NCBI GenBank assembly: GCA_038845975.1
Contig: JAWBQF010000047.1
Span: 1 to 14,691, forward strand
Source: Candidatus Methanomethylicia archaeon
GTDB taxonomy: Archaea > Thermoproteota > Methanomethylicia > CALHIW01
Reading direction: 5' to 3'
DNA: 14,691 nt
Shown: one piece after another, positions 55 to 14,423 of the stretch
How positions within the stretch are numbered: the first letter of the stretch is position 1
Layout of the letters: every line of letters starts with the position of its first letter
Translations under genes and position numbers: made by a program
Notes under the pieces: model-generated
What the model was told of the DNA's origin: nothing
Database searches by the model: none
The model's input: only the letters and a program-made list of their open reading frames with translations

Positions 55-306
55 TTAAAGTTTCAATCTTTCTTCTAATCTTTTTGAAAAAATTGGTACT
101 AATTCTAACCAATTATAATCAATACAGTCTTCAACTTCATGAGGAATGCCTCTATCTATTTTTTCTTTACAAATCTCTGAAATTAAACGGTTTACTTCTT
201 CATAAATTACTGGATCTTTAATAATTTTCTCACCTATAAGTTCAATTATCTTTTTCTCTATTTTCTTTTCTGCACCTAACTTGATTATTTCACTCATATA
301 TATCAA
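55..306 (-). CDS. Small helical hypothetical protein (83 aa, 2 Cys)
   Basis: ORF track; E/K/I-rich coding-like composition; co-oriented with neighbours. True start may be the internal Met (MSEII). Confidence 0.7.
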   Translation of the reverse strand: MIYMSEIIKLGAEKKIEKKIIELIGEKIIKDPVIYEEVNRLISEICKEKIDRGIPHEVEDCIDYNWLELVPIFSKRLEERLKL

Positions 307-445
307 CTGATATTTTTATTACTAATACTTTTATTTATCTTTTACTATTTTTTGATCATCTTTAATTAATCATCTACGAATAGCTTCTTTAACTAAACTC
401 TTTATCGTATTATTTAAATACTTTTAAAGTTGGTCATTATCTATT

Positions 446-709
446 TTATCGCCTTACTATAAACTCAGAGCATGTAACTTCTTCCATTGCTTTCTCATAT
501 CCAACTTCCTTTATTCTATTATACATTTTTTCCATATTATCTACTATACACTCAAGCAAATCCCAGCTAGTCTTACCACTACATATCTTTTCAACTACAC
601 ATCTATGAGCAGAACTAACTTGCTTACCAGTTAATTCACCAGCTAATTCAGACAAAAATTTAGCTAAGAATAGCTCAGCAGTTCTTTCAGCAACAAATTT
701 ATTGTTCAA
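446..709 (-). CDS. Hypothetical protein (87 aa, 4 Cys), paralog of the 45-aa protein at 795-932
   Basis: GGTGA RBS before TTG start; shares G..V...H..VV......K..WDLL.CIVD.M...Y with 795-932. Confidence 0.8.
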   Translation of the reverse strand: MNNKFVAERTAELFLAKFLSELAGELTGKQVSSAHRCVVEKICSGKTSWDLLECIVDNMEKMYNRIKEVGYEKAMEEVTCSEFIVRR

Positions 710-719
710 TTAAAATCAC

Positions 720-794
720 CAATAAAAAATATGATAGAGGAGAAAAAAAAGCTTTCGATAAAAAAAATAAAAAATAAAAAAAACTTGTTTTTTT
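720..794 (-). terminator. Oligo-T archaeal terminator downstream of the 45-aa gene
   Basis: Several T5-T8 runs on the minus strand (A runs on +) right after the stop at 795. Confidence 0.6.
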
Positions 795-932
795 TTAGCC
801 TTTATGTTCTTTATATTCTCTATGCATTTCGTCAACTATACACGCTAATAAATCCCATCCTACTTTTGTTTCTTTACATCTATCTACAACTGCTTTATGT
901 TTTCTTACAACCTCAGGTCCTTTGTATGGCAT
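795..932 (-). CDS. Unannotated 45-aa protein MPYKGPEVVRKHKAVVDRCKETKVGWDLLACIVDEMHREYKEHKG
   Basis: Translated by hand. GGTGA RBS 5 nt before ATG, TTAAATA box just upstream, oligo-T terminator downstream, clear paralogy to 446-709. Confidence 0.85.
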   Translation of the reverse strand: MPYKGPEVVRKHKAVVDRCKETKVGWDLLACIVDEMHREYKEHKG

Positions 933-957
933 TAATATCACCAAACTTAATATTTAA

Positions 958-1206
958 CTATACTTTATTTATACTTTTGTCCGACAATGTGTCAGACTTC
1001 TTAACAATCTTTGTAGCCTTTTCTATTGCATCTACTATTCCAATAGTATAGTAATCTTGCCTAATGTTCAGTATCAATCCAGTAAGCTCTATGCAAAATT
1101 TAATAGCATTTGATATCTCATCAGTTCTAAGAGCGTTCATAAGCTCTTTCAATATTTCCAATTGTCCTTTATTAAGTCTTACAGTTACTTTTTTTGACTT
1201 TATCAT
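958..1206 (-). CDS. Ribbon-helix-helix (CopG-like) DNA-binding protein
   Basis: N-terminal KKVTVRL beta strand followed by two helices (QLEILKELM...EISNAIKFCIE); ATGA overlap with the upstream gene. Confidence 0.75.
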   Translation of the reverse strand: MIKSKKVTVRLNKGQLEILKELMNALRTDEISNAIKFCIELTGLILNIRQDYYTIGIVDAIEKATKIVKKSDTLSDKSINKV

Positions 1207-1985
1207 TGCTTAGTCGCCATCTTAATCATTTTCTCAATGTCTTCATCAGTTATACCTTTTGATTTTCCTTCTTCAATCAATACTCTTATGAACTCCTCAT
1301 TACTAATCTCATTTTTTAAGTACTTTTGTAAAGCTTCAAAGCATTTATCACCTATTCTCTCACATAGTATTTTGAAGAACTTATTAGGATCTACATTACA
1401 TGCTGGACACTCACCATACTTAATCCTATACTTTTCAGCCATTTCATATGCCTTATCTAATAGCCTCTTAACCATATCTTTTGCAATTCTTAAATCATCT
1501 ATACTATTAGATACAGTTGTTAAACCTTTAGCCCACATAAACTTTCTAATATCTCTTTGAAGTACCTTTATTTCATCTAATGCTTTTTTAAATTCTTCAT
1601 CTTTAACATTTGTTCCAAGATCATCTTCAGCTGTTACTATTTCTTCTATTGCTCTTCTAATTTTCTCTCTAGCTTCTGGAGTTATTTTACCATACTTTAA
1701 GCTAAATCTCTCAGCTTCTTCCAATAATCCATGTGCTTTTGCATAATGACGCTCTAAACATTCTGCACATGCATCTTCTTTACTTTGACCTGGGTAACTT
1801 GGTGAGAAAACTCCAGTTTCTCTTTGCTCATAGATTGGCTTATATATTATCTTATTATCAAACTCATTAAGTACATTATCCAATTTTTTTATTATTGAAT
1901 CTAAGTCTTCTATTAATCTAAGTGGTACTTTAAGTACTTCATCTGGATTTTCAAATACTTTTAGTAATTTCTCCAACCTGACCAC
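1203..1985 (-). CDS. Alpha-helical hypothetical protein with CxxCxxxHxxxxH and CxxC motifs
   Basis: 260-aa ORF; motifs CAECLERHYAKAH and CPAC; overlaps the end of the 428-aa gene. Confidence 0.85.
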   Translation of the reverse strand: MVRLEKLLKVFENPDEVLKVPLRLIEDLDSIIKKLDNVLNEFDNKIIYKPIYEQRETGVFSPSYPGQSKEDACAECLERHYAKAHGLLEEAERFSLKYGKITPEAREKIRRAIEEIVTAEDDLGTNVKDEEFKKALDEIKVLQRDIRKFMWAKGLTTVSNSIDDLRIAKDMVKRLLDKAYEMAEKYRIKYGECPACNVDPNKFFKILCERIGDKCFEALQKYLKNEISNEEFIRVLIEEGKSKGITDEDIEKMIKMATKQ

Positions 1986-3237
1986 CTCTAGGTTTTAGAT
2001 TAGCTACAGACTTTATTAGTTCTTCTTCAAGCTTCAATATTTCCTCACTTTTCTCAAGCTTCTTTTTTATCTCTTCAGCTTTTTTAACTCTTTCTTCAGG
2101 AGTTCTTTTAACCTCAGGTTTCCATGTATTACTTATAGTAGAAATCTTATCAAGTAATTGTGCAGCTCTTTGATCAATTCTATCTACAATTGAGTCTAGT
2201 AAATCTGCTGTTGTCCTGCCACCTTTTTGAAAACCAAGTCTCTTGGCAATTTCCTCATATATTGTTAATTCTTCAATAAGGTTTGGCCTCTTCTTCAATT
2301 CCTCAAGCTCTTTCTTAATTATTTCAACTTCTTTTTTATGTAATTCTTCTCTTAATTTTTCAATCTCTTTTTTAGACTCGTCATCAGTCTTTAAATATAA
2401 TGGTGCAAGATAAGCTGGTACTTGAATTTCCTTATCACCAATTTTAACCGGTACTGTTGGTTCTTTCTTTCTTTCAGTCTCTTCTGTTATTTTCTTTATT
2501 TCAGCCTCAAGCTTCTTCATATTAAGCTCATGCTCCTGCTTTCTACGTTCATACTCCTCTCTTTCTCTTAAGAAGCGTTGCCAAGCCATATACCCACTTT
2601 CATCTGTCTCAATCTCTTGTCCATCAACTACTATTTTATATGTCTTTGGAGGCTTAGGTGGAGTATAATATTGAATCAATGGTGTTGTATAATAATATGA
2701 GCTATACTGTTGATATGGATTACTTAAATATGGTTGATATGGTACTTGAGGGGTATACATTGGCATAGGAGGTGGTGATTGAGATGTACTTTCAACATAC
2801 TTTGCAATTGCCTGAGGTAAGTTAGGAAACTTAGCATATAATGGGCTTATAACAAATGCAGATAGGTGTGAGTCATATGCCCTAGGAGCCATACTTTTTA
2901 TAAATGCATGTAAAGCATTTGGATTACCAAGTGGCATTGGATTCTCTTTAAGTGATTGAACTAATATCTTATCGTACTTCTCAATTCCATATACTTTTGG
3001 CAATCTCTCTCCCAAGAATGCTAAAGCCTCTTCAATTATTGAAACTTCCCATGGTTTTGGTAGTTCAGTTTCTGATTCTGGCTCCTCGACCTCTACTGCT
3101 TCGAACATCTTCTCCCAATCATCCCAAGGTGATTCATTAAGTTTTTCTGGGTGCACAAGATTGAAGTGCCCAAACTTTCCATGTTTATCAACCAACTTTT
3201 CACATATAGGACACTTAAACTTAGTTACCTTACCCAC
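1951..3237 (-). CDS. C2H2 Zn-finger / Pro-Tyr-Gln linker / coiled-coil protein
   Basis: CPIC-x11-H-x4-H at the N-terminus; P/Y/Q-rich middle; long E/K heptad C-terminal half; purine-rich RBS (AGGAGGGG) upstream. Confidence 0.88.
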   Translation of the reverse strand: MGKVTKFKCPICEKLVDKHGKFGHFNLVHPEKLNESPWDDWEKMFEAVEVEEPESETELPKPWEVSIIEEALAFLGERLPKVYGIEKYDKILVQSLKENPMPLGNPNALHAFIKSMAPRAYDSHLSAFVISPLYAKFPNLPQAIAKYVESTSQSPPPMPMYTPQVPYQPYLSNPYQQYSSYYYTTPLIQYYTPPKPPKTYKIVVDGQEIETDESGYMAWQRFLREREEYERRKQEHELNMKKLEAEIKKITEETERKKEPTVPVKIGDKEIQVPAYLAPLYLKTDDESKKEIEKLREELHKKEVEIIKKELEELKKRPNLIEELTIYEEIAKRLGFQKGGRTTADLLDSIVDRIDQRAAQLLDKISTISNTWKPEVKRTPEERVKKAEEIKKKLEKSEEILKLEEELIKSVANLKPRGGQVGEITKSI

Positions 3238-3283
3238 CCCATCCCCTCCTACTATACTTTATTACTAAAATATTAACTAAGTC

Positions 3284-3319
3284 TAGATCTAATCTTATAT
3301 ACTCAAGTATAAGTTGAGT
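3284..3319. promoter_or_regulatory. Overlapping palindromes upstream of the 428-aa gene (possible operator)
   Basis: TAGATCTA (3284-3291); TATAC-tcaa-GTATA; ACTCAA-n7-TTGAGT (3301-3319). Confidence 0.3.
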
Positions 3320-3332
3320 TAAATTTTCTATT

Positions 3333-3530
3333 CTATCCAGCATATCTCTCAGCCTCTATAGCCTTTAATATCTCATTAACCATAAAGTATAAGCATGCTC
3401 TCATAGTATCACCAATAGTTGGTTCTTTAATTTTACCTTGTTTATATAAATATTGAGCTAGTATTTCAATTACTTTTTTCTCCTCTTCTGTAACTCTAAT
3501 ACTTATTATTGTTGTAGTCATAATACACAC
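3333..3530 (-). CDS. RHH-like transcriptional regulator
   Basis: TIISIRVTEEEKKVIE (strand plus helix), then TIGDTMRACL (second helix); first gene of the left arm. Confidence 0.75.
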   Translation of the reverse strand: MCIMTTTIISIRVTEEEKKVIEILAQYLYKQGKIKEPTIGDTMRACLYFMVNEILKAIEAERYAG

Positions 3531-3643
3531 TAATATATATTGTATAATTAACTCTATTAAATATTTCGTTCAACTATTACACTATTGTAATGGTATAGTG
3601 TTACAAAATTATTTATACTATATTATAATTAATATGTATTTGT
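3531..3643. promoter_or_regulatory. Divergent promoter region with central inverted repeats
   Basis: TATA-like boxes in each direction (TTTATAC near 3612; ATTAAATA near 3556-3563). Central TTACACTAT-n9-ATAGTGTTA repeat (3577-3603) with interleaved TTACA/TGTAA half-sites. Confidence 0.6.
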
Positions 3644-4387
3644 GTGATAGAATTGATTAAGATAGGAGTTGTTAGTGGAAAAGGAGGGGTTGGAAAGAGT
3701 ACAATAGCAGTAAGTATGGCAATTGCATTAGTAAAGAAAGGATTCAAAGTTGGATTAGTAGATATTGATATAACAGGACCAAATATACATGACCTACTAG
3801 GTAAATCAGAATTAAAAATAACAAGTGATGATAAATTTATTCCTACAGAATCAATGGGAGTAAAATATATATCAATTGGAGAAATTGCAAGTGATGGACT
3901 TCCAATACTATGGGATTCTAAAGATGTTAAAAGTGCTGCTAAGCAATTAATGGAAAGAACTGAATGGGGAAATTTAGATTTCTTAATATTTGATTTCCCA
4001 CCTGGCTTTGGTCCTGAGGTAATTGAAATGCTTCCATTAATGGACTATGTTTTAATAGTTACTATTCCATCAGTTCTTTCTAAAAGCAAAGTTGATAGAA
4101 TTGTTGAAGCTTGTCGTGAATATCAAGTTAAAATACTTGGAGTAGTAATGAATATGTCTTACTTAATATGTCCATTTTGTAATACAAAATATAGAATATT
4201 TTCTGAAGACCATAGCTTTGAAGAATTAGGAATACCAACTATAGCTGAATTTCCATTTTGTAATACAAAATATATTAATGAATTTCCAGTAGAATCATTT
4301 ATAAAAGCATTGAATAATCCAATTATTCTAAAGAAGAAAAGATCACTTAAAAGAAAATTACTAAAATTATTATTGAAGGTGAGATAA
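3644..4387 (+). CDS. Mrp/NBP35-like (MinD/ParA superfamily) P-loop ATPase
   Basis: Deviant Walker A SGKGGVGKST; VDIDITGP; WGNLDFLIFDFPPG; LGVVMNMSYLICPFC (cf. Mrp ENMS...CPxC); basic amphipathic C-terminal tail. Confidence 0.92.
   Translation: MIELIKIGVVSGKGGVGKSTIAVSMAIALVKKGFKVGLVDIDITGPNIHDLLGKSELKITSDDKFIPTESMGVKYISIGEIASDGLPILWDSKDVKSAAKQLMERTEWGNLDFLIFDFPPGFGPEVIEMLPLMDYVLIVTIPSVLSKSKVDRIVEACREYQVKILGVVMNMSYLICPFCNTKYRIFSEDHSFEELGIPTIAEFPFCNTKYINEFPVESFIKALNNPIILKKKRSLKRKLLKLLLKVR
4171..4274 (+). repeat. Perfect 23-bp direct repeat inside the ATPase gene
   Basis: TCCATTTTGTAATACAAAATATA at 4171-4193 and 4252-4274; in frame, giving PFCNTKY twice. Confidence 0.95.
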
Positions 4388-4782
4388 TGGGATTTGTAAA
4401 AGACATAATAGATAAGATTCTATCTATTCAAGATAGATTTTATCCAGAGACAATTGAATACTATAAAATGGGAGAGGGGAAAGTATCATTATTGAGAGTA
4501 GTTGGTATAGATGGAGAATCAGTATTGCTTAAGGTTGATGGAGGAAAAATAAAATATGCTAAAGGAGATGAAACACCAGTACATATACTTAGATGTAGTA
4601 CAGATACATTCTTAGATCTTATTTCAGGAGAAGAGGATTTGAGAGATGCAATGACAAAAGGACACTTTATTATAGAAAGTGCAGCTACTTGTACAATGGA
4701 CTTAGTAGAAATGGAGAAATGGGCTAAGGCTTTTTCTAGACTTAGGAGATTAATAAATAAATATATTGGTGGTAAAGTATGA
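4387..4782 (+). CDS. SCP2 (sterol carrier protein 2)-like lipid-binding protein
   Basis: LKVDGGKIKY...ILRCSTDTFLDLISGEEDLRDAMTKGHFIIE matches the SCP2 pattern (..F..L..G..D...A...G.l.i.); TAATG coupling to the ATPase gene. Confidence 0.75.
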   Translation: MGFVKDIIDKILSIQDRFYPETIEYYKMGEGKVSLLRVVGIDGESVLLKVDGGKIKYAKGDETPVHILRCSTDTFLDLISGEEDLRDAMTKGHFIIESAATCTMDLVEMEKWAKAFSRLRRLINKYIGGKV

Positions 4783-5732
4783 ATGTATATGAATTATTTA
4801 AAGCAAGGGGTAAGTTTAGATTAAAGCATTATATATATGCATGGATTATATCAGCAAGACTTTTTGCACTACCATGGGTTATACTATATACTATATTCGG
4901 AATACTATTAGCTGGTATAACAAACATTGAAAGAGCTATTGCATCTTGTCTTATAGTAGCTTTTATTTTACTTTCATCACACTTTAATAATAATTATAAA
5001 GATGTTGAACTTGGCATAGATAAGTATGTGGATTCAATTGAAGAAGCTGAGAAGATATGTTCAACTTTAAAGCCATATACTGCTGGAGCTTGGATGGTTC
5101 CATTAAGAATAACAAGTATTAAATTTCAAAAAGCTAATGATTTTCTATTCATGACTTTAGCTATTTTGACTTACTTAATATTCTTTACAAAAGAATTAAG
5201 TATTTTAATTTCATCACTACCAATACTATTATTAGGATTATCTACTGGAAGACTATATACTACATTCTTTAAGTATAGAAAGTTGGGAGAAGTTGCTGCT
5301 TTCCTAGGTCATGGATTTGGAACAACAGCTTTTGGATTTCTATCACAAATACCTGATATTATAACTGCTATTCTAATTGGAATACCAACTGGTCTTATAT
5401 CAGCATTAGCATATAGTGTTGATCAATTTATAGATATAAAGACAGATTTCATTAAAAGAGTTAGATGTATTTATGAAAGTTGGTTCAATAGTAGAATGCC
5501 TCTTGGTCTATATGTTTTAGTAACGTTTGTATTTTGGATTAATGTTGTAATTGCATGGGTTGTTGCTGGAATATATCCACGTGGTGTATTAATTGTTATT
5601 TCATTAATACCTGCTTTTCTATTCTTTTCACCACAACTTGAGTATAATAGAGAGAAAGCACTACTTAATATTGTTATAATAGCAATTGTATTAATACCTC
5701 TTTTAATGTGTATAGGAGTAATAATTAAATGA
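4779..5732 (+). CDS. UbiA-superfamily intramembrane prenyltransferase, MenA/UBIAD1-like
   Basis: About 8-9 hydrophobic segments; AR...LP start; HFNNNYKDVELGID (cf. NxxNDYxDxxxGxD); KYRKLGE (cf. LKYRGLGE); second acidic motif DQFIDIKTD; ATGA coupling. Confidence 0.87.
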   Translation: MNVYELFKARGKFRLKHYIYAWIISARLFALPWVILYTIFGILLAGITNIERAIASCLIVAFILLSSHFNNNYKDVELGIDKYVDSIEEAEKICSTLKPYTAGAWMVPLRITSIKFQKANDFLFMTLAILTYLIFFTKELSILISSLPILLLGLSTGRLYTTFFKYRKLGEVAAFLGHGFGTTAFGFLSQIPDIITAILIGIPTGLISALAYSVDQFIDIKTDFIKRVRCIYESWFNSRMPLGLYVLVTFVFWINVVIAWVVAGIYPRGVLIVISLIPAFLFFSPQLEYNREKALLNIVIIAIVLIPLLMCIGVIIK

Positions 5733-5953
5733 AAAATAAATATAAGAAATTAGATTTTATTATTGGGGTGCTTGAAATGAATGAGTTAATAAAGGACTTT
5801 AGAAATGATATTAAGAAGTTAATTGAAACATTGATAACATTGAATAATAACTTAGCAAAGCTTGAGTCATTTACAGTATCAATAGAAAAGCTAACTAAGG
5901 AATTAGAAGAGATTAATAAAAACTTTAAACTTTTAATGGAGATGAATAAATAA
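5729..5953 (+). CDS. Small coiled-coil protein (alternative start at 5777, 58 aa)
   Basis: Heptad L/I pattern; GGGGTG RBS before the ATG at 5777; TAATG coupling to the protease gene. Confidence 0.75.
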   Translation: MKNKYKKLDFIIGVLEMNELIKDFRNDIKKLIETLITLNNNLAKLESFTVSIEKLTKELEEINKNFKLLMEMNK

Positions 5954-7158
5954 TGCCTAGATATTTGGTTGAGTTTTATCCAAATAAGCAAGAAGAAGTA
6001 TATAAAAGTCTTAAGAGTTTAGGTTTAACTCCACTAAGAAAAATTGCAGGAAAGTATTGGTCTGTAGAAGCTACTAAAGACTTAGTTCAAAAAATTGAAT
6101 CTATACCAGGTGTTATAAGGGTAATTGAGGAGAAAACATATCATATAGCATCTTTACCAATAGAGTTAAAGCTAGCTAAGTTTATAGAGATGGGAGGACC
6201 TTTAAATCCATTAGCATTGATATGGGCAGCTGGATTTAGAAAGGATAGATGGCCGACATCAGAATCGAGAAAGGTATTAGAGGCAAATATAGCAGATGAA
6301 ATTGGTATAAATGGGAAAGGAGTTAAAGTAGCTGTTTTAGATACAGGTTTTGATACCACTATCCAAAAGCCAGTAGTAGACTACATGGATTCAACACTTG
6401 AAGGAGATCCACTACCATTAGATAGTAATGGACACTCAACACATGTACTAACAACGATCTGCGGTAAAAGAATGCCAACACCATGGGGTTGGCTTGAGGG
6501 GATTGCTAAAGGAGTTCAAATAGCAACTATTAAATGCCTAGGATATGGAGTAGGAACTGCTAGAACTGCTGATGTAATAGAGGCAATTGCAAATGCATAT
6601 AATTGGGGTGCAAAGATAATTAACCTATCATTAGGAACTGACATAAATCCAGGTGAAACACATGATCCTGAAACTTGCCCACTATGTAACTTAATAACTG
6701 CATTGAGTAATAGAGGGGTTATATTCTGCGTTGCAACAGGAAACTCAGGTAAGGGATACGCAAGTTGCCCCGGAGCAAGCCCAGGAGCAATAACTGTTGC
6801 GGCCTTAAGGAAGGACCTATCCGTAGCAGACTTCTCATCAAGAGATCATCAAGTCTACACAAGTCTTAATAAGCCTGACGTAGGTGCTCCAGGGGTTGAT
6901 ACAGGCTCAAGTAGCACAGGCCTCATAGCGGCCATGGAATGGGTGGACGGCCCGAAGGTAGCATATATATCAGGATCAAGCATGGCAACGCCTCATTGTT
7001 CTGGCCTGTTCGCCCTATGGGTCGAGTACGCTAGGAGGAAAGGTGTTGAGCTGACTAGGGATGTTATTATGGATGTTATAGAACACTACTCTTATTGGAG
7101 GCCCGATGTTGGATACGGAGTCCCCAAGTTCTCGTGGATAGTTGACTACCTGAGGTGA
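5953..7158 (+). CDS. Subtilisin-family (S8) serine protease with N-terminal propeptide and no signal peptide
   Basis: Triad motifs VAVLDTG, NGHSTHV and SGSSMATPH; oxyanion ATGNSG; INLSLG; FSSR...KPDVGAPG; I9-like prodomain (YLVEF...IESIPGVIRVIEE). Confidence 0.95.
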   Translation: MPRYLVEFYPNKQEEVYKSLKSLGLTPLRKIAGKYWSVEATKDLVQKIESIPGVIRVIEEKTYHIASLPIELKLAKFIEMGGPLNPLALIWAAGFRKDRWPTSESRKVLEANIADEIGINGKGVKVAVLDTGFDTTIQKPVVDYMDSTLEGDPLPLDSNGHSTHVLTTICGKRMPTPWGWLEGIAKGVQIATIKCLGYGVGTARTADVIEAIANAYNWGAKIINLSLGTDINPGETHDPETCPLCNLITALSNRGVIFCVATGNSGKGYASCPGASPGAITVAALRKDLSVADFSSRDHQVYTSLNKPDVGAPGVDTGSSSTGLIAAMEWVDGPKVAYISGSSMATPHCSGLFALWVEYARRKGVELTRDVIMDVIEHYSYWRPDVGYGVPKFSWIVDYLR

Positions 7159-7162
7159 TCAT

Positions 7163-8002
7163 ATGTTGTTCAGCATTACTGTAAGGCTTCAGAGCGTTAA
7201 TCTTAGGAGACCTGAGTTCAACATCAAGAAAGGGTTGATGAGGCCATCACTATTTCCGTGGGCTCCTGTAGAGGTGGACAGTTCCAAAGCTATGAGCAGT
7301 GTTGCTGAGGTTGCACCGCTAGCACACGACGTTGTCGAATGGATGCACGTAGCGACGAGTGATTTAATAGTATTCAACGCTATGGAGGATGAGTACAACA
7401 GGCTCGGTAGTGAGCTAATATCATCATCTGGTGATGCATACATACCTGGCGTTAGGTGCGGTGATTTAAGGGGTGAGAGCGTGTCAGGATATACTGTTAG
7501 GTCTAGGGGCTATGGAACAGTTATAACTCCTGAGGGGTCCTTCAACGTACCTATTAGGGGTAAGACAACATTCGCTAAGGGAAGCGTAATTGCGTGGGCC
7601 GCCATACCAGACCCCGGGACAGGATGTCAGTGGGTCCTAACACTACTTCAGTGGAGGGACCTTGCTAGAGCACCTGTTAGGGATAGGGTTAGGTTCGGAA
7701 GCTCCTACGGATTAGTAGCACCTAACTTCTTCCTAATACCTCAGACAGTAGCACCGGTTAGAACTCTTAGGATTGGTATTACAAGTGATAAATCACAGAA
7801 GATTTTAATTAGGGGTAGGGGGACTAAGGGCTCATATGAGAGGGTGCTGTTTGAGGACTCATTCGAAGTAGATGCTGGTGAGAGCGAGGTAGTGTACAAC
7901 GTCTTATCATTCCCGTCAGTACCTGCATTCACGCTAGAGATACAGCCATCGGATAATACTCAAACAGTATTAGACTATATTGAAATATTACCACCATGGT
8001 GA
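7163..8002 (+). CDS. Beta-rich hypothetical protein (279 aa), possible structural protein
   Basis: GAGGTGA RBS; alternating hydrophobic beta pattern in the C-terminal ~100 aa; lies in a GC-elevated segment. Confidence 0.8.
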   Translation: MLFSITVRLQSVNLRRPEFNIKKGLMRPSLFPWAPVEVDSSKAMSSVAEVAPLAHDVVEWMHVATSDLIVFNAMEDEYNRLGSELISSSGDAYIPGVRCGDLRGESVSGYTVRSRGYGTVITPEGSFNVPIRGKTTFAKGSVIAWAAIPDPGTGCQWVLTLLQWRDLARAPVRDRVRFGSSYGLVAPNFFLIPQTVAPVRTLRIGITSDKSQKILIRGRGTKGSYERVLFEDSFEVDAGESEVVYNVLSFPSVPAFTLEIQPSDNTQTVLDYIEILPPW

Positions 8003-8319
8003 TTATAATGAAAATAAAACTACTACCCGAGGTAAATATACCTTTAATTAATGTAAGTCTACCATCTATTGAACTTCCAGAATTTCCTCCAAAGATTCCT
8101 AAACTTGATGAAAGACAAATTGATGTATTACGTTATGCAATAATGGATGATTTAGCTGATATAGTTCCATTCATAGGAGATGTACTTTCTGATATAGCTT
8201 ATGCTGAATTAAAGAAGAAACTAACCATTGATGAATATGAGCAATTTTTAAAAGATAATAAATGGCTTCCTTCTACTATAGCAGTATTGAAGACTTTTAC
8301 TGAACGGAAGACTTATTAA
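7996..8319 (+). CDS. Small Pro-rich protein with hydrophobic hairpin motif (probable start 8008)
   Basis: GGTGA RBS before the ATG at 8008; LP-rich N-terminus; DLADIVPFIGDVLSD motif. Confidence 0.75.
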   Translation: MVIIMKIKLLPEVNIPLINVSLPSIELPEFPPKIPKLDERQIDVLRYAIMDDLADIVPFIGDVLSDIAYAELKKKLTIDEYEQFLKDNKWLPSTIAVLKTFTERKTY

Positions 8320-8352
8320 GAAAGAAATATTGATTATATTTTGGTGGTTTGA

Positions 8353-9179: not shown

Positions 9180-9956
9180 GTGATGTTATTGTCTGAGAGA
9201 CCCGTACCTATAGAAGAAGTTCAAGCAGGAATACCCGTAGCAGCTCTTGAGAGAAGAACTGTAAGTTATGTAGATTTAAGTGATACAGAAAGGAAATGGG
9301 TTGAATATGTATTTAATTCAGGTGTAAAACATCTAAAAATTGTTGCACCTTCAATTGCAAGTGATATAGAAAGACAGAAGGATTTAGCAATAAGGATGGC
9401 TGGTGTTGCAAAAGCTACTTTCCCAGTTAGAAAGAACTACAACTTTCCAAGTGTTCCAGGTAGTTTAGGTGTTGCATGGTTATTCCCACAAGCAATAAAG
9501 TGGACTAAAACTCCAGATACATCTAATCCATGCTATACTAGTTATAAGGATAATAGTTGGGATATAGATGTAACAGCTGGTACTGCTGCATACTTATTAG
9601 GAGATGGAACAAACTTCTATAAAGCAAATCCAACTACAGAGCAACATACATTCATACTTATATTTGAGAATGGAGTAATAGAGGTTGGTTCAACACCAAC
9701 AATTGAACAATTCCACTTAATAAGTGAAGGTAAGAGAGATTATGGAATATATACAGTTGAGCCATTAGTAGATATACCAATTGAGAAAAATGTATCTATA
9801 TATCAGTATCCAACACCATTAGGAGCAGTTTTTGTAAGCCATGATAGAGGAATAATGTGGGGATTCATGCCAAGAACAAGTGGAACAAAGACAATAAAGC
9901 TACTTGGATTAGTCTTTTATGAACATGATTTCATGAGCAGATTGAAATGGATATAA
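9180..9956 (+). CDS. Candidate major capsid protein (N-terminal helices plus beta-sandwich/jelly-roll-like domain)
   Basis: The ORF itself is solid. Function is inferred from a dedicated promoter, pairing with a decoration-like protein, a strong terminator after the pair and a beta-rich C-terminal two-thirds. No homology search was run. Confidence 0.5.
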   Translation: MMLLSERPVPIEEVQAGIPVAALERRTVSYVDLSDTERKWVEYVFNSGVKHLKIVAPSIASDIERQKDLAIRMAGVAKATFPVRKNYNFPSVPGSLGVAWLFPQAIKWTKTPDTSNPCYTSYKDNSWDIDVTAGTAAYLLGDGTNFYKANPTTEQHTFILIFENGVIEVGSTPTIEQFHLISEGKRDYGIYTVEPLVDIPIEKNVSIYQYPTPLGAVFVSHDRGIMWGFMPRTSGTKTIKLLGLVFYEHDFMSRLKWI

Positions 9957-13520: not shown

Positions 13521-14423
13521 TTGTCTTTAATAGAGTTTCTCGACCCAGCGTATGTAAAAGGTAAGTTAGATACTTTCGATAGTAAATTAGACGTCGCTCT
13601 ATCGACTAGAGCTTCAGAAACTACATTAACTGCTTTAAGTAATAAATTTCCTAGTGCTACTACTTTAGGAGATTCTTTATCAAATCCAACAACAACTATA
13701 ATAGGCGGGGCTCTATTGGGTTGGGATAGCGCCGGCGGCGTCTGGGAGAGAGTATATACCGACGGTTCTAATAGACTTAAAGTTCAATTAGATACTATAC
13801 CTAATCCATCTAATTTAGACACAGCTCTTTCAACAAGACTCTCCGAAACAACCTTTACTAGTAGATGGGATGGAGGAATATATGGCTTTGATGGAACTAC
13901 TGCTAGAAAAATAAGAACTGATACAGACGGACACTTACAAATAGACGTCTTAACTACCTCTAATCCTCCAAACTTCGATGTGGCTTTAAGTACTAGAGCT
14001 AGTGAATCAACACTATCATCAATATTAAGTAAGTTAGACGTAAATCTTTCTACTAGATTATCAGATTCAAAGATACCTAATGCCCTCGGTCAAGCAAGTT
14101 TAGACGTAGTTGGCTCTACAATGTATGCTTTAGGCGTTGTGCCTTCTTATCTGCCGTCTAGAATGCCTTATTGTGTTGCTAATATTTCGGTTGGCACCAC
14201 GGAGAGTAGCACAGCTATATCGACTCCCGGAGGAAAGCTATTAATACTTAGGAATAAAGGAGACGTAGATATTCAGATAGGCATAAATGGCTCAGTCCCA
14301 GCTACCAACCCATTAATTCTAAGAGCTAGGACGATTAGAATATTCCCCTTCAAAAGTGTTACTGCAATATATTATAAAACGGCCGCCGGAAGTAGTACTC
14401 TAGATATAGAATACTGGAACTAG
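13521..14423 (+). CDS. Fibre/spike-like protein with LDxxLSTR repeats and C-terminal beta-sandwich
   Basis: S/T/G-rich; four [LF]DxxLSTR[AL]S repeats at 13587, 13815, 13974 and 14034; GGAGGTGA RBS. Confidence 0.7.
   Translation: MSLIEFLDPAYVKGKLDTFDSKLDVALSTRASETTLTALSNKFPSATTLGDSLSNPTTTIIGGALLGWDSAGGVWERVYTDGSNRLKVQLDTIPNPSNLDTALSTRLSETTFTSRWDGGIYGFDGTTARKIRTDTDGHLQIDVLTTSNPPNFDVALSTRASESTLSSILSKLDVNLSTRLSDSKIPNALGQASLDVVGSTMYALGVVPSYLPSRMPYCVANISVGTTESSTAISTPGGKLLILRNKGDVDIQIGINGSVPATNPLILRARTIRIFPFKSVTAIYYKTAAGSSTLDIEYWN

Follow-up and report, generated by a model that had tools for sequence, protein, structure and literature searches.

The 14,691-bp window analysed here is the entire contig C47 (JAWBQF010000047.1) of a 76-contig, 2.77-Mb archaeal metagenome-assembled genome (MAG) of Candidatus Methanomethylicia that is 93% complete. 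Its forward strand carries twenty open reading frames (ORFs) between 3644 and 14671, with gaps of −20 to +273 nt. The first five of these encode a P-loop ATPase, an SCP2-fold protein, a prenyltransferase, a small helical protein (cc74), and an S8 subtilase (Table 1), and head a long rightward transcription unit in what is probably a virus. Each of the five proteins belongs to a known superfamily; no archaeal virus-like element combining them came up in the searches of sequence collections and literature. The five-gene operon points to an element that produces a prenylated membrane lipid of its own. An earlier note on this DNA had proposed a lipid-handling, prenylation, and protease module heading a virus-like structural gene block, an interpretation that the present results support in part.

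The five co-directional genes and their junctions are as the earlier note gave them. Stop and start codons abut or overlap as TAATG at 4387, ATGA at 4779 and 5729, and TAATG at 5953, leaving gaps of −1, −4, −4, and −1 nt. No terminal repeats or tRNA genes were found in the window, and the contig has no DNA match to the rest of the MAG.

Table 1. Features of the window, followed by genes of related loci (locus:coordinates) discussed in the text
Feature	Position	Strand	Basis or remark
65-aa divergent gene, likely regulator	3333..3530	-	Faint ribbon-helix-helix (RHH)-type matches (NikA-like/DUF6290), E 0.007-0.022
AT-rich divergent spacer, 113 nt, with putative promoters and short palindrome	3531..3643	.	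Sequence reading
Mrp/NBP35 (ApbC/NUBPL-type) P-loop ATPase, 247 aa	3644..4387	+	PF10609
SCP2-fold lipid-binding protein, 131 aa	4387..4782	+	AF2 model and Foldseek; PF02036 borderline
Divergent UbiA-superfamily, MenA/UBIAD1-like polytopic membrane prenyltransferase, 317 aa	4779..5732	+	Family profile
Conserved helical (coiled-coil-like) protein, 74 aa (cc74)	5729..5953	+	Seven orthologues
S8 subtilase, 401 aa	5953..7158	+	PF00082, intact triad
GC-rich tract (0.46 vs ~0.30)	6700..8000	.	96-100% DNA identity to metagenome contig L004
o279, 279-aa protein	7163..8002	+	Always after the protease gene
o107, o81, o102, three small proteins of 107, 81, and 102 aa	7996..8906	+	Travel with the five-gene module
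o258, highly conserved 258-aa beta-sandwich protein, candidate capsid	9180..9956	+	Homologues and AF2 model
o80, one clear hydrophobic helix	12188-12430		Kyte-Doolittle scan
o143, one clear hydrophobic helix	12902-13333		Kyte-Doolittle scan
o300, 300-aa fibre-like protein	13521-14423		Repeated (D/N)-x-A-L-S-T-R-x-S-E-(T/S)-T-L motifs; no family match
Intein-bearing S8 gene	L006:4181-6457
Intein-bearing S8 gene	L007:4458-6932
Intein-bearing S8 gene	L019:2980-4887
Intein-bearing S8 gene	L027:6656-9169	-	Intein called from its ORF and alignment
Intein-bearing SCP2 gene	L016:2273-3640
Inverted slot gene	L019:1499-2362	-	With small VapB-like or winged-helix gene
Inverted slot gene	L027:9463-10395		With small VapB-like or winged-helix gene

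Family and fold assignments of the five proteins

The prenyltransferase could be placed through its family. An exhaustive phmmer search of 1.84 billion representatives returned 34 relatives, 14 of them at E≤1e-10. Profile A1, built from the window protein and 24 relatives (n=25; 10 short fragments omitted), has a single match in the PDB, human UBIAD1 (8djk_B, E 1.8e-17). PF01040 is matched by 20 of the 25 family members (best 2.7e-21), and MenA models are their commonest NCBIfam matches (NF004751 in 16/25, TIGR00751 in 10/25, heme O synthase in 2/25). Residues Asn71, Asp75, and Asp81 (N-x3-D-x3-G-x-D), as well as Asp215 and Asp219 (D-x3-D), are invariant in all 25. In the UbiA superfamily, whose members have eight to nine transmembrane helices, such Asp-rich motifs are catalytic and bind Mg2+ and prenyl diphosphate. 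The window protein is predicted to be polytopic by Kyte-Doolittle analysis, in which 12 overlapping windows form some six hydrophobic regions that leave room for roughly eight helices. Naphthoquinone heads are the acceptors prenylated by MenA and UBIAD1, and several proteins of the window enzyme's clade carry the JGI label 'DHNA octaprenyltransferase'. Judged by its sequence relatives, the protein is a divergent member of the UbiA superfamily, probably on the MenA/UBIAD1 branch. The MenA-like assignment made earlier is confirmed at the level of the family profile only, the single protein having no model match of its own.

A second, word-based profile search delimited the clade more sharply. 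Of its 70 matches, 50 have 48–100% identity, and none of these comes from a contig longer than 34.6 kb; beyond them scores drop from 249 to at most 78 bits (cellular MenA), save for one 168-aa fragment at 152 bits. The window enzyme resembles MenA and UBIAD1 in its family-profile matches, in both Asp-rich motifs, and in its predicted polytopic build, but differs from them in forming part of a clade whose roughly 50 clusters are confined to contigs of 35 kb or less, with a sharp score gap to cellular MenA, and in lying on a mobile element without head-group genes.

Assignment of the 131-residue protein encoded immediately upstream depended on its predicted structure. Its sequence scores 21.0 bits against PF02036 (E 4.3e-4), just below the cut-off of 21.3, and the sole match of its profile among PDB sequences is an SCP2 entry at E 0.12. 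An AlphaFold (AF2) model built on 22 family members (pLDDT 73.5) gave 27 Foldseek matches in the PDB at E≤0.001, with SCP2 structures leading and AF1534 at 8.4e-6. TM scores against UbiJ-SCP2 are 0.62–0.69, and SCP2-like alkylsulfatase domains are also among the matches. The model confirms the predicted SCP2 alpha/beta fold, in agreement with the earlier assignment. The family comprises 42 clusters, all at least 55% identical; members with a named source are annotated as hypothetical proteins and come from MAG contigs no longer than 25 kb.

The product of the first gene matches PF10609 at E 5.9e-58 (196.6 bits against a cut-off of 27.1), and its deviant Walker A motif (GKGGVGKS) and CxxC pair (Cys176 and Cys179) are invariant in five of five orthologues, bearing out its description as an Mrp ATPase. 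Among NCBIfam models it matches MrpORP (1.9e-52), MinD_arch (6.4e-18), and ParA_partition (1.1e-11), and stays below the equivalog cut-offs (178.8 vs 450). A partition ATPase (ParA/MinD) was considered for this gene and rejected, given that the Mrp models outscore ParA. On sequence criteria the protein is of the iron–sulfur (Fe-S) carrier type (Mrp/NBP35 with CxxC), a point not considered in the earlier note. It shares with the Mrp, ApbC, NBP35, and NUBPL carriers the PF10609 domain, a deviant Walker A motif, and a CxxC pair within the conserved context NMSY..CP.C. It differs from them in that it is element-borne, scores below equivalog level, and ends in a conserved tail that is basic and amphipathic (hydrophobic moment up to 0.73). 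MinD carries a C-terminal membrane-targeting helix; because the basic amphipathic tail resembles it, the tail is possibly a membrane-binding helix. It is tempting to speculate that an ATPase of the Fe-S-carrier type is linked to respiratory-chain assembly, the Pfam name referring to NUBPL.

Within the ATPase gene a 26-nt direct repeat (4168–4193 and 4249–4274) duplicates the stretch coding for C-P-F-C-N-T-K-Y. The second copy (F-P-F-C-N-T-K-Y) replaces a different segment, which is four residues longer in four orthologues.

The product of the fourth gene, cc74, had been called a coiled coil. It is a conserved 74-residue helical protein with seven orthologues at 44–57% identity and 15 invariant positions; the coiled-coil part of the description is less secure, matches to coiled-coil Pfam families being weak (E 0.009–0.085). 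The S8 subtilase is as described before (PF00082, E 3.7e-38, 131.9 bits), and its triad of Asp130, His161, and Ser343 is kept in eight of eight homologues. Like intracellular subtilisins and the maturation proteases of ribosomally synthesized and post-translationally modified peptide (RiPP) and type VII secretion systems, it has PF00082 and an intact triad. Unlike these, it belongs to a fixed module that includes lipid genes, it lacks by Kyte-Doolittle analysis the hydrophobic N-terminal stretch that a signal peptide needs, and inteins interrupt its relatives at the catalytic His or Ser.

These inteins lie exactly before catalytic His161 in loci L006 and L019 and before catalytic Ser343 in L007 and L027 (Table 1). 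In L017 the S8 gene is split as in L007 (by tblastn only), and one further intein lies inside the SCP2 gene of L016. Some of the inteins contain LAGLIDADG endonuclease domains. The window copies of both genes are intein-free. The presence of inteins also points to the importance of these proteins for the element.

Conservation and distribution of the module

Twelve loci (L004–L015) were drawn from a metagenome scan, and nine (L016–L024) from GTDB species genomes with a profile of o258. The order ATPase–SCP2–prenyltransferase–cc74–S8, followed by the same downstream genes, recurs in five of the 12 metagenome loci (L004–L008, of which L004 and L005 are nearly identical and L008 begins inside the ATPase gene) and in L016. 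The GTDB scan also yielded the module in L019, and its 3′ part in L017 and L018, where the locus or contig breaks off. In all, at least seven lineages besides the window's keep this arrangement, L019 and L027 (see below) among them. By locus tag, prenyltransferase and SCP2 genes are also neighbours on four more MAG contigs, one of which has o258 ten tags away. Downstream, o279 follows the S8 gene in L004–L008, L016–L019, and L027 (genome G117), and o107, o81, and o102 are conserved in L004, L016, L018, L019, and L027. In L027, o279 and the small proteins stay with the module, and none of the window's genes downstream of o102 was matched. Co-occurrence of the module with its downstream block at other loci, which had been looked for, is thus borne out by conserved synteny.

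In L019 and L027, the slot between the SCP2 and cc74 genes is occupied by a different membrane-protein gene on the opposite strand (Table 1). The L019 gene product matches PF01040 at E 1.1e-9 and profile A1 with an hhalign probability of 96.9. That of L027 has no NCBIfam match, and only motifs recognized by eye tie it to the L019 gene. In both loci this is a replacement of the prenyltransferase and not a loss, with UbiA family membership shown for L019 alone.

Ratios of nonsynonymous to synonymous substitution (dN/dS), computed only for pairs with unsaturated synonymous sites, are low for every member of the module: 0.11–0.23 for the ATPase (10/15 pairs computable), 0.04–0.19 for SCP2 (6/15), 0.05–0.22 for the prenyltransferase (7/15), 0.15–0.32 for cc74 (11/21), and 0.07–0.15 for S8 (2/3). 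By these sequence comparisons the five genes are under purifying selection and none is decaying. For the prenyltransferase, in which decay had been looked for in particular, the preservation of both Asp-rich motifs in all family members tells the same story.

The SCP2 profile has matches in two of 401 genomes of the phylum, the host MAG (G000) included, in a search that also brought up L027 in G117, and no convincing match to the prenyltransferase was found among 40 related genomes (one 69-residue match, E 0.006). A search of genome contigs with prenyltransferase profile A2 gave no match. Neither the SCP2 search nor that of the 40 genomes supported clustering with chromosomal housekeeping orthologues, which the earlier note had named as a refutation. 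The host MAG has four canonical UbiA genes, of which two are heme-O-synthase-like, one DGGGPS-like, and one MenA-like; in tblastn searches with the element prenyltransferase, the MenA-like gene is the sole detectable paralogue (E 1.5e-4, 26% identity). The ATPases of element and host share 33% identity.

Elements of this family come from hot-spring metagenomes, and Thermoproteota is the label of most MAG bins in which they are found. Relatives of o258 are binned in Bathyarchaeia, Nitrososphaerota, Thermofilaceae, Desulfurococcaceae, Sulfolobales, and even bacteria, a scatter expected of mis-binned extrachromosomal DNA. The bins of L020, L022, L023, and L024 carry the labels bacterium, Deltaproteobacteria, candidate division Kazan, and Saccharibacteria; these labels may reflect mis-binning, or an o258 family reaching far beyond Thermoproteota.

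Very short contigs from four public hot-spring runs (three studies) match the window at 6238–6280, 7805–7841, and 8304–8341, each match being flanked on both sides by 24-nt CRISPR-like repeats. From their sequence, these contigs are read as spacers against the element, which is compatible with a virus or a plasmid alike. Arrays on contigs C6 and C27 of the host MAG have a nearly identical 26-nt repeat, and none of the MAG's 62 CRISPR spacers matches the window or related loci over more than 17 nt.

Given the conserved gene order, the dN/dS values of 0.04–0.32, the presence of SCP2 in two of 401 genomes, and the CRISPR-like matches, the five-gene cluster is a selected, mobile module and not a housekeeping men locus. 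The earlier statement that this is no ordinary men or ubi locus holds accordingly, with a conserved operon found on a mobile, CRISPR-targeted element.

The element is probably a virus. No viral hallmark family (capsid, portal, terminase, or packaging ATPase) was found in 26 window proteins searched against Pfam or in 10 searched against PHROGs. Of the virus-like structural block proposed earlier, the mobile, virus-like element stands, while the block itself is inferred and has no viral hallmark match. The candidate capsid, o258, has 189 homologue clusters; among the matches listed, 119 besides the window's own are 52–86% identical. Its AF2 model (pLDDT 93.6) comprises helices and a beta-sandwich, and its fold matches are generic jelly-roll and carbohydrate-binding-module folds, the best at Z 5.2, with PRD1 P3 at 4.7 and SPV1 at 4.4 against a caution line of 8. 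As only generic beta-sandwich matches were obtained, no capsid fold is claimed. The earlier mention of small membrane-type genes is correct for o80 and o143 and does not apply directly after the protease, where the Kyte-Doolittle scan gave no hydrophobic helix.

Relatives of neither the prenyltransferase (single protein, profile A2) nor o258 (single protein, profile A3) were found in IMG/VR, and none of either in INPHARED, in which the whole window (as DNA) and o300 also had no match. The synteny search proposed earlier was productive in metagenome and MAG loci and empty in IMG/VR for these two proteins. With more than 180 o258 clusters and none found in either collection, the element family appears to be unclassified.

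Function of the module

Our preferred explanation, to which we give a probability of roughly 0.4, is a prenyl-lipid step of the quinone type that the element encodes and an SCP2 chaperone assists, in a selected operon of an undescribed family of virus-like elements. To the family and fold assignments, the conserved gene order, the purifying selection, the sporadic mobile distribution, and the CRISPR targeting, this explanation adds a substrate, a coupling among the five proteins, and a benefit to the element, all of which we infer. The prenyltransferase would most likely take a polyprenyl chain of host origin and attach it, within the host membrane, to a small aromatic head group of the quinone type. 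The hydrophobic substrate or product would most likely be held by the SCP2-fold protein, by analogy with UbiJ and UbiT. During infection the element would in effect produce or modify a prenylated membrane lipid or quinone. The Mrp/NBP35 ATPase probably acts at the membrane as an ATP-dependent dimer able to carry an Fe-S cluster. The S8 subtilase, presumed cytoplasmic, most likely processes products of genes downstream of its own; it is favoured as the processing enzyme of o279 and the three small proteins because its gene always precedes theirs.

UbiJ and UbiT are SCP2-domain accessory factors of quinone synthesis. The window system shares with them the SCP2 fold and the placement of the SCP2 gene directly before a quinone-type prenyltransferase gene, and recalls the UbiJ–UbiK pair in that a small helical protein is encoded directly after the prenyltransferase gene. 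It differs in that the window SCP2 protein has no sequence similarity to UbiJ beyond the fold.

Several observations weigh against this explanation. Taken alone, the window prenyltransferase has no Pfam match even at E≤10 and no NCBIfam match, no member of its family was shown to reach the MenA equivalog cut-off, and its second motif lacks the G-K present in the host MenA-like protein. No other quinone-pathway domain was found among the 26 window ORFs scanned, as the earlier note had stated, and the element has no head-group gene; nor was MqnA/D (PF02621) found in the 93%-complete host MAG. The helical protein cc74 has no similarity to UbiK, and neither the Fe-S-type ATPase nor the protease shows a tie to lipid chemistry. 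Prenyltransferase homologues occur without detectable ATPase or SCP2 in L009–L014 (50–56% identity) and in L015 (34% identity), three of these seven contigs being shorter than 2 kb, and it follows that the five genes need not form one machine. Loci L020–L024, with 30–59% o258 identity, have no module in the available flank, which makes the module accessory.

The prenyltransferases that stand without ATPase or SCP2 genes agree with an account in which the five genes are co-transcribed and functionally separate, the prenyltransferase (with or without SCP2) being an auxiliary metabolic enzyme, the ATPase serving Fe-S supply or segregation, and the protease serving maturation, with no joint machine. 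The invariable succession of protease, o279, and small proteins fits such a division of labour, as does a match of the ATPase to a ParA-like PHROG (E 4e-26), although its Mrp match is far stronger than that to the ParA model. The account has more difficulty with the five-gene order and its 1–4-nt overlaps, which are kept across lineages with saturated synonymous sites, with the refilling of the prenyltransferase slot by another UbiA gene in L019 and L027 (by motifs only in the latter), and with a distant S8 gene near the prenyltransferase in the otherwise different L013. We regard it as doubtful, though it deserves serious consideration.

A fuller version of the prenyl-lipid explanation would see the module as a metabolon of undescribed archaeal hot-spring viruses. 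The prenyltransferase, SCP2 protein, and helical partner (compare UbiA–UbiJ–UbiK) would work together with the ATPase, a virus-specific prenylated quinone or lipid would rewire host respiration during infection or enter the particle, and the subtilase would mature particle proteins. This version is rather unlikely; if true, archaea would have their first case of a UbiA-type prenyltransferase system encoded by a virus.

It is also conceivable, but distinctly unlikely, that the module serves a virion membrane, with the prenyltransferase and SCP2 protein making or selecting a special isoprenoid lipid for an inner or outer membrane of the virion, and the membrane-binding ATPase and the protease acting in assembly. 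The module does head an operon containing candidate structural genes, single hydrophobic helices occur in both o80 and o143, and PRD1 and SPV1, to whose capsid proteins o258 has weak jelly-roll matches (Z 4.4–4.7), are membrane-containing viruses. The element, however, is known here from its genes alone, these fold matches are below any meaningful threshold, and L020–L024 share o258 but not, in the flank available, the module. Moreover, MenA-type enzymes produce quinones, not bilayer lipids, and the host has a DGGGPS-like enzyme of its own.

The suggestion in the earlier note that small proteins are prenylated and then cleaved found no support. In such a RiPP-like or sortase-like lipidation, a UbiA enzyme would prenylate a small element-encoded protein and the S8 protease would trim it, in line with the small conserved ORFs after the protease gene and with weak matches of the protease to cyanobactin PatA/PatG-type maturation proteases (E 1e-8). 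We know of no protein substrate for any UbiA-superfamily enzyme, the best S8 matches are generic (PF00082, and mycosin at E 2.3e-23, far below its cut-off), and the window ORF list contains no precursor-like repeated or leader–core peptide, all of which makes this very improbable. Least credible of all is an ordinary chromosomal origin, the window being a small host-MAG contig with housekeeping genes, for although the contig's GC content (0.336) equals that of the MAG (about 0.34) and the host has paralogues of the ATPase, prenyltransferase, and S8 protease, these are only 26–35% identical, the SCP2 profile is all but absent from the phylum, relatives lie only on small contigs in many different bins, and CRISPR-like repeat-flanked contigs match the element.

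To our knowledge, archaeal viruses obtain their lipids from host cells. INPHARED, IMG/VR, and the full-text literature searched yielded no archaeal virus or phage in which a UbiA/MenA-type prenyltransferase, an SCP2 protein, or an Mrp/NBP35 ATPase is part of a fixed module, in keeping with the remark in the earlier note that the combination was not known from a described archaeal virus. The nearest published theme appears to be the giant-virus VKOR redox module (PMC13486548). The two have in common a virus-like element with quinone or lipid enzymes that could reshape host membranes; they differ in host domain, enzymes, and gene set, and 'ubiad1', 'ubia', and 'prenyltransferase' have 0 occurrences in that paper.

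If the element-encoded prenyl-lipid module is active, a small mobile element would control part of its host's isoprenoid or quinone chemistry. This would be relevant to the ways in which viruses of hyperthermophiles handle membranes and energy supply, and would provide a compact, thermostable pair of prenyltransferase and carrier for biochemistry.

Flanking genes, base composition, and related loci

The leftward arm of the window (55–3530) holds genes for proteins of 428, 260, and 65 aa, the first two without clear family match. A homologue of the 65-aa gene occupies the same position in L004–L007, L016, and L019. Between this gene and the ATPase gene, the AT-rich spacer has TATA-like runs about 30 nt upstream of 3644, and from its sequence is plausibly a divergent promoter.

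The GC-rich tract (Table 1) spans the 3′ half of the S8 gene and the whole of o279. Outside it, the alignment of 3340–7995 to L004 is mostly 62–71% identical, with two 150-nt windows near 0.5. Public runs from two other studies contain mainly this tract, and no listed contig bridges 6728–6978. The tract reflects either recent recombination between lineages or a chimeric assembly.

Among the genes downstream of the module, o279 has no Pfam, PHROG, or NCBIfam match. The candidate o262 was ruled out as a detectable paralogue of o258 (hhalign probability 0.2). Repeated L-S-T-R-x-S-E motifs mark fibre-like products of downstream genes such as o300. Relatives of o300 keep the N-terminus, the remainder being variable, and relatives of the element encode a protein with a Laminin_G_3 (concanavalin A-like) domain.

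In L015 (1091–1756), a cytidylyltransferase gene (PF02348, E 2.4e-15) lies directly upstream of the prenyltransferase homologue, on a small contig that also has RHH-like genes. The last ORF of the 19-kb relative L019 (17234–17739) resembles, by eye, the N-terminal part of a tyrosine recombinase. At locus L028 of the host MAG (G000:C3:96500–105500), the MenA-like gene overlaps a downstream radical-SAM/SPASM gene by one base, and nucleotidyltransferase and SufBD genes lie nearby.

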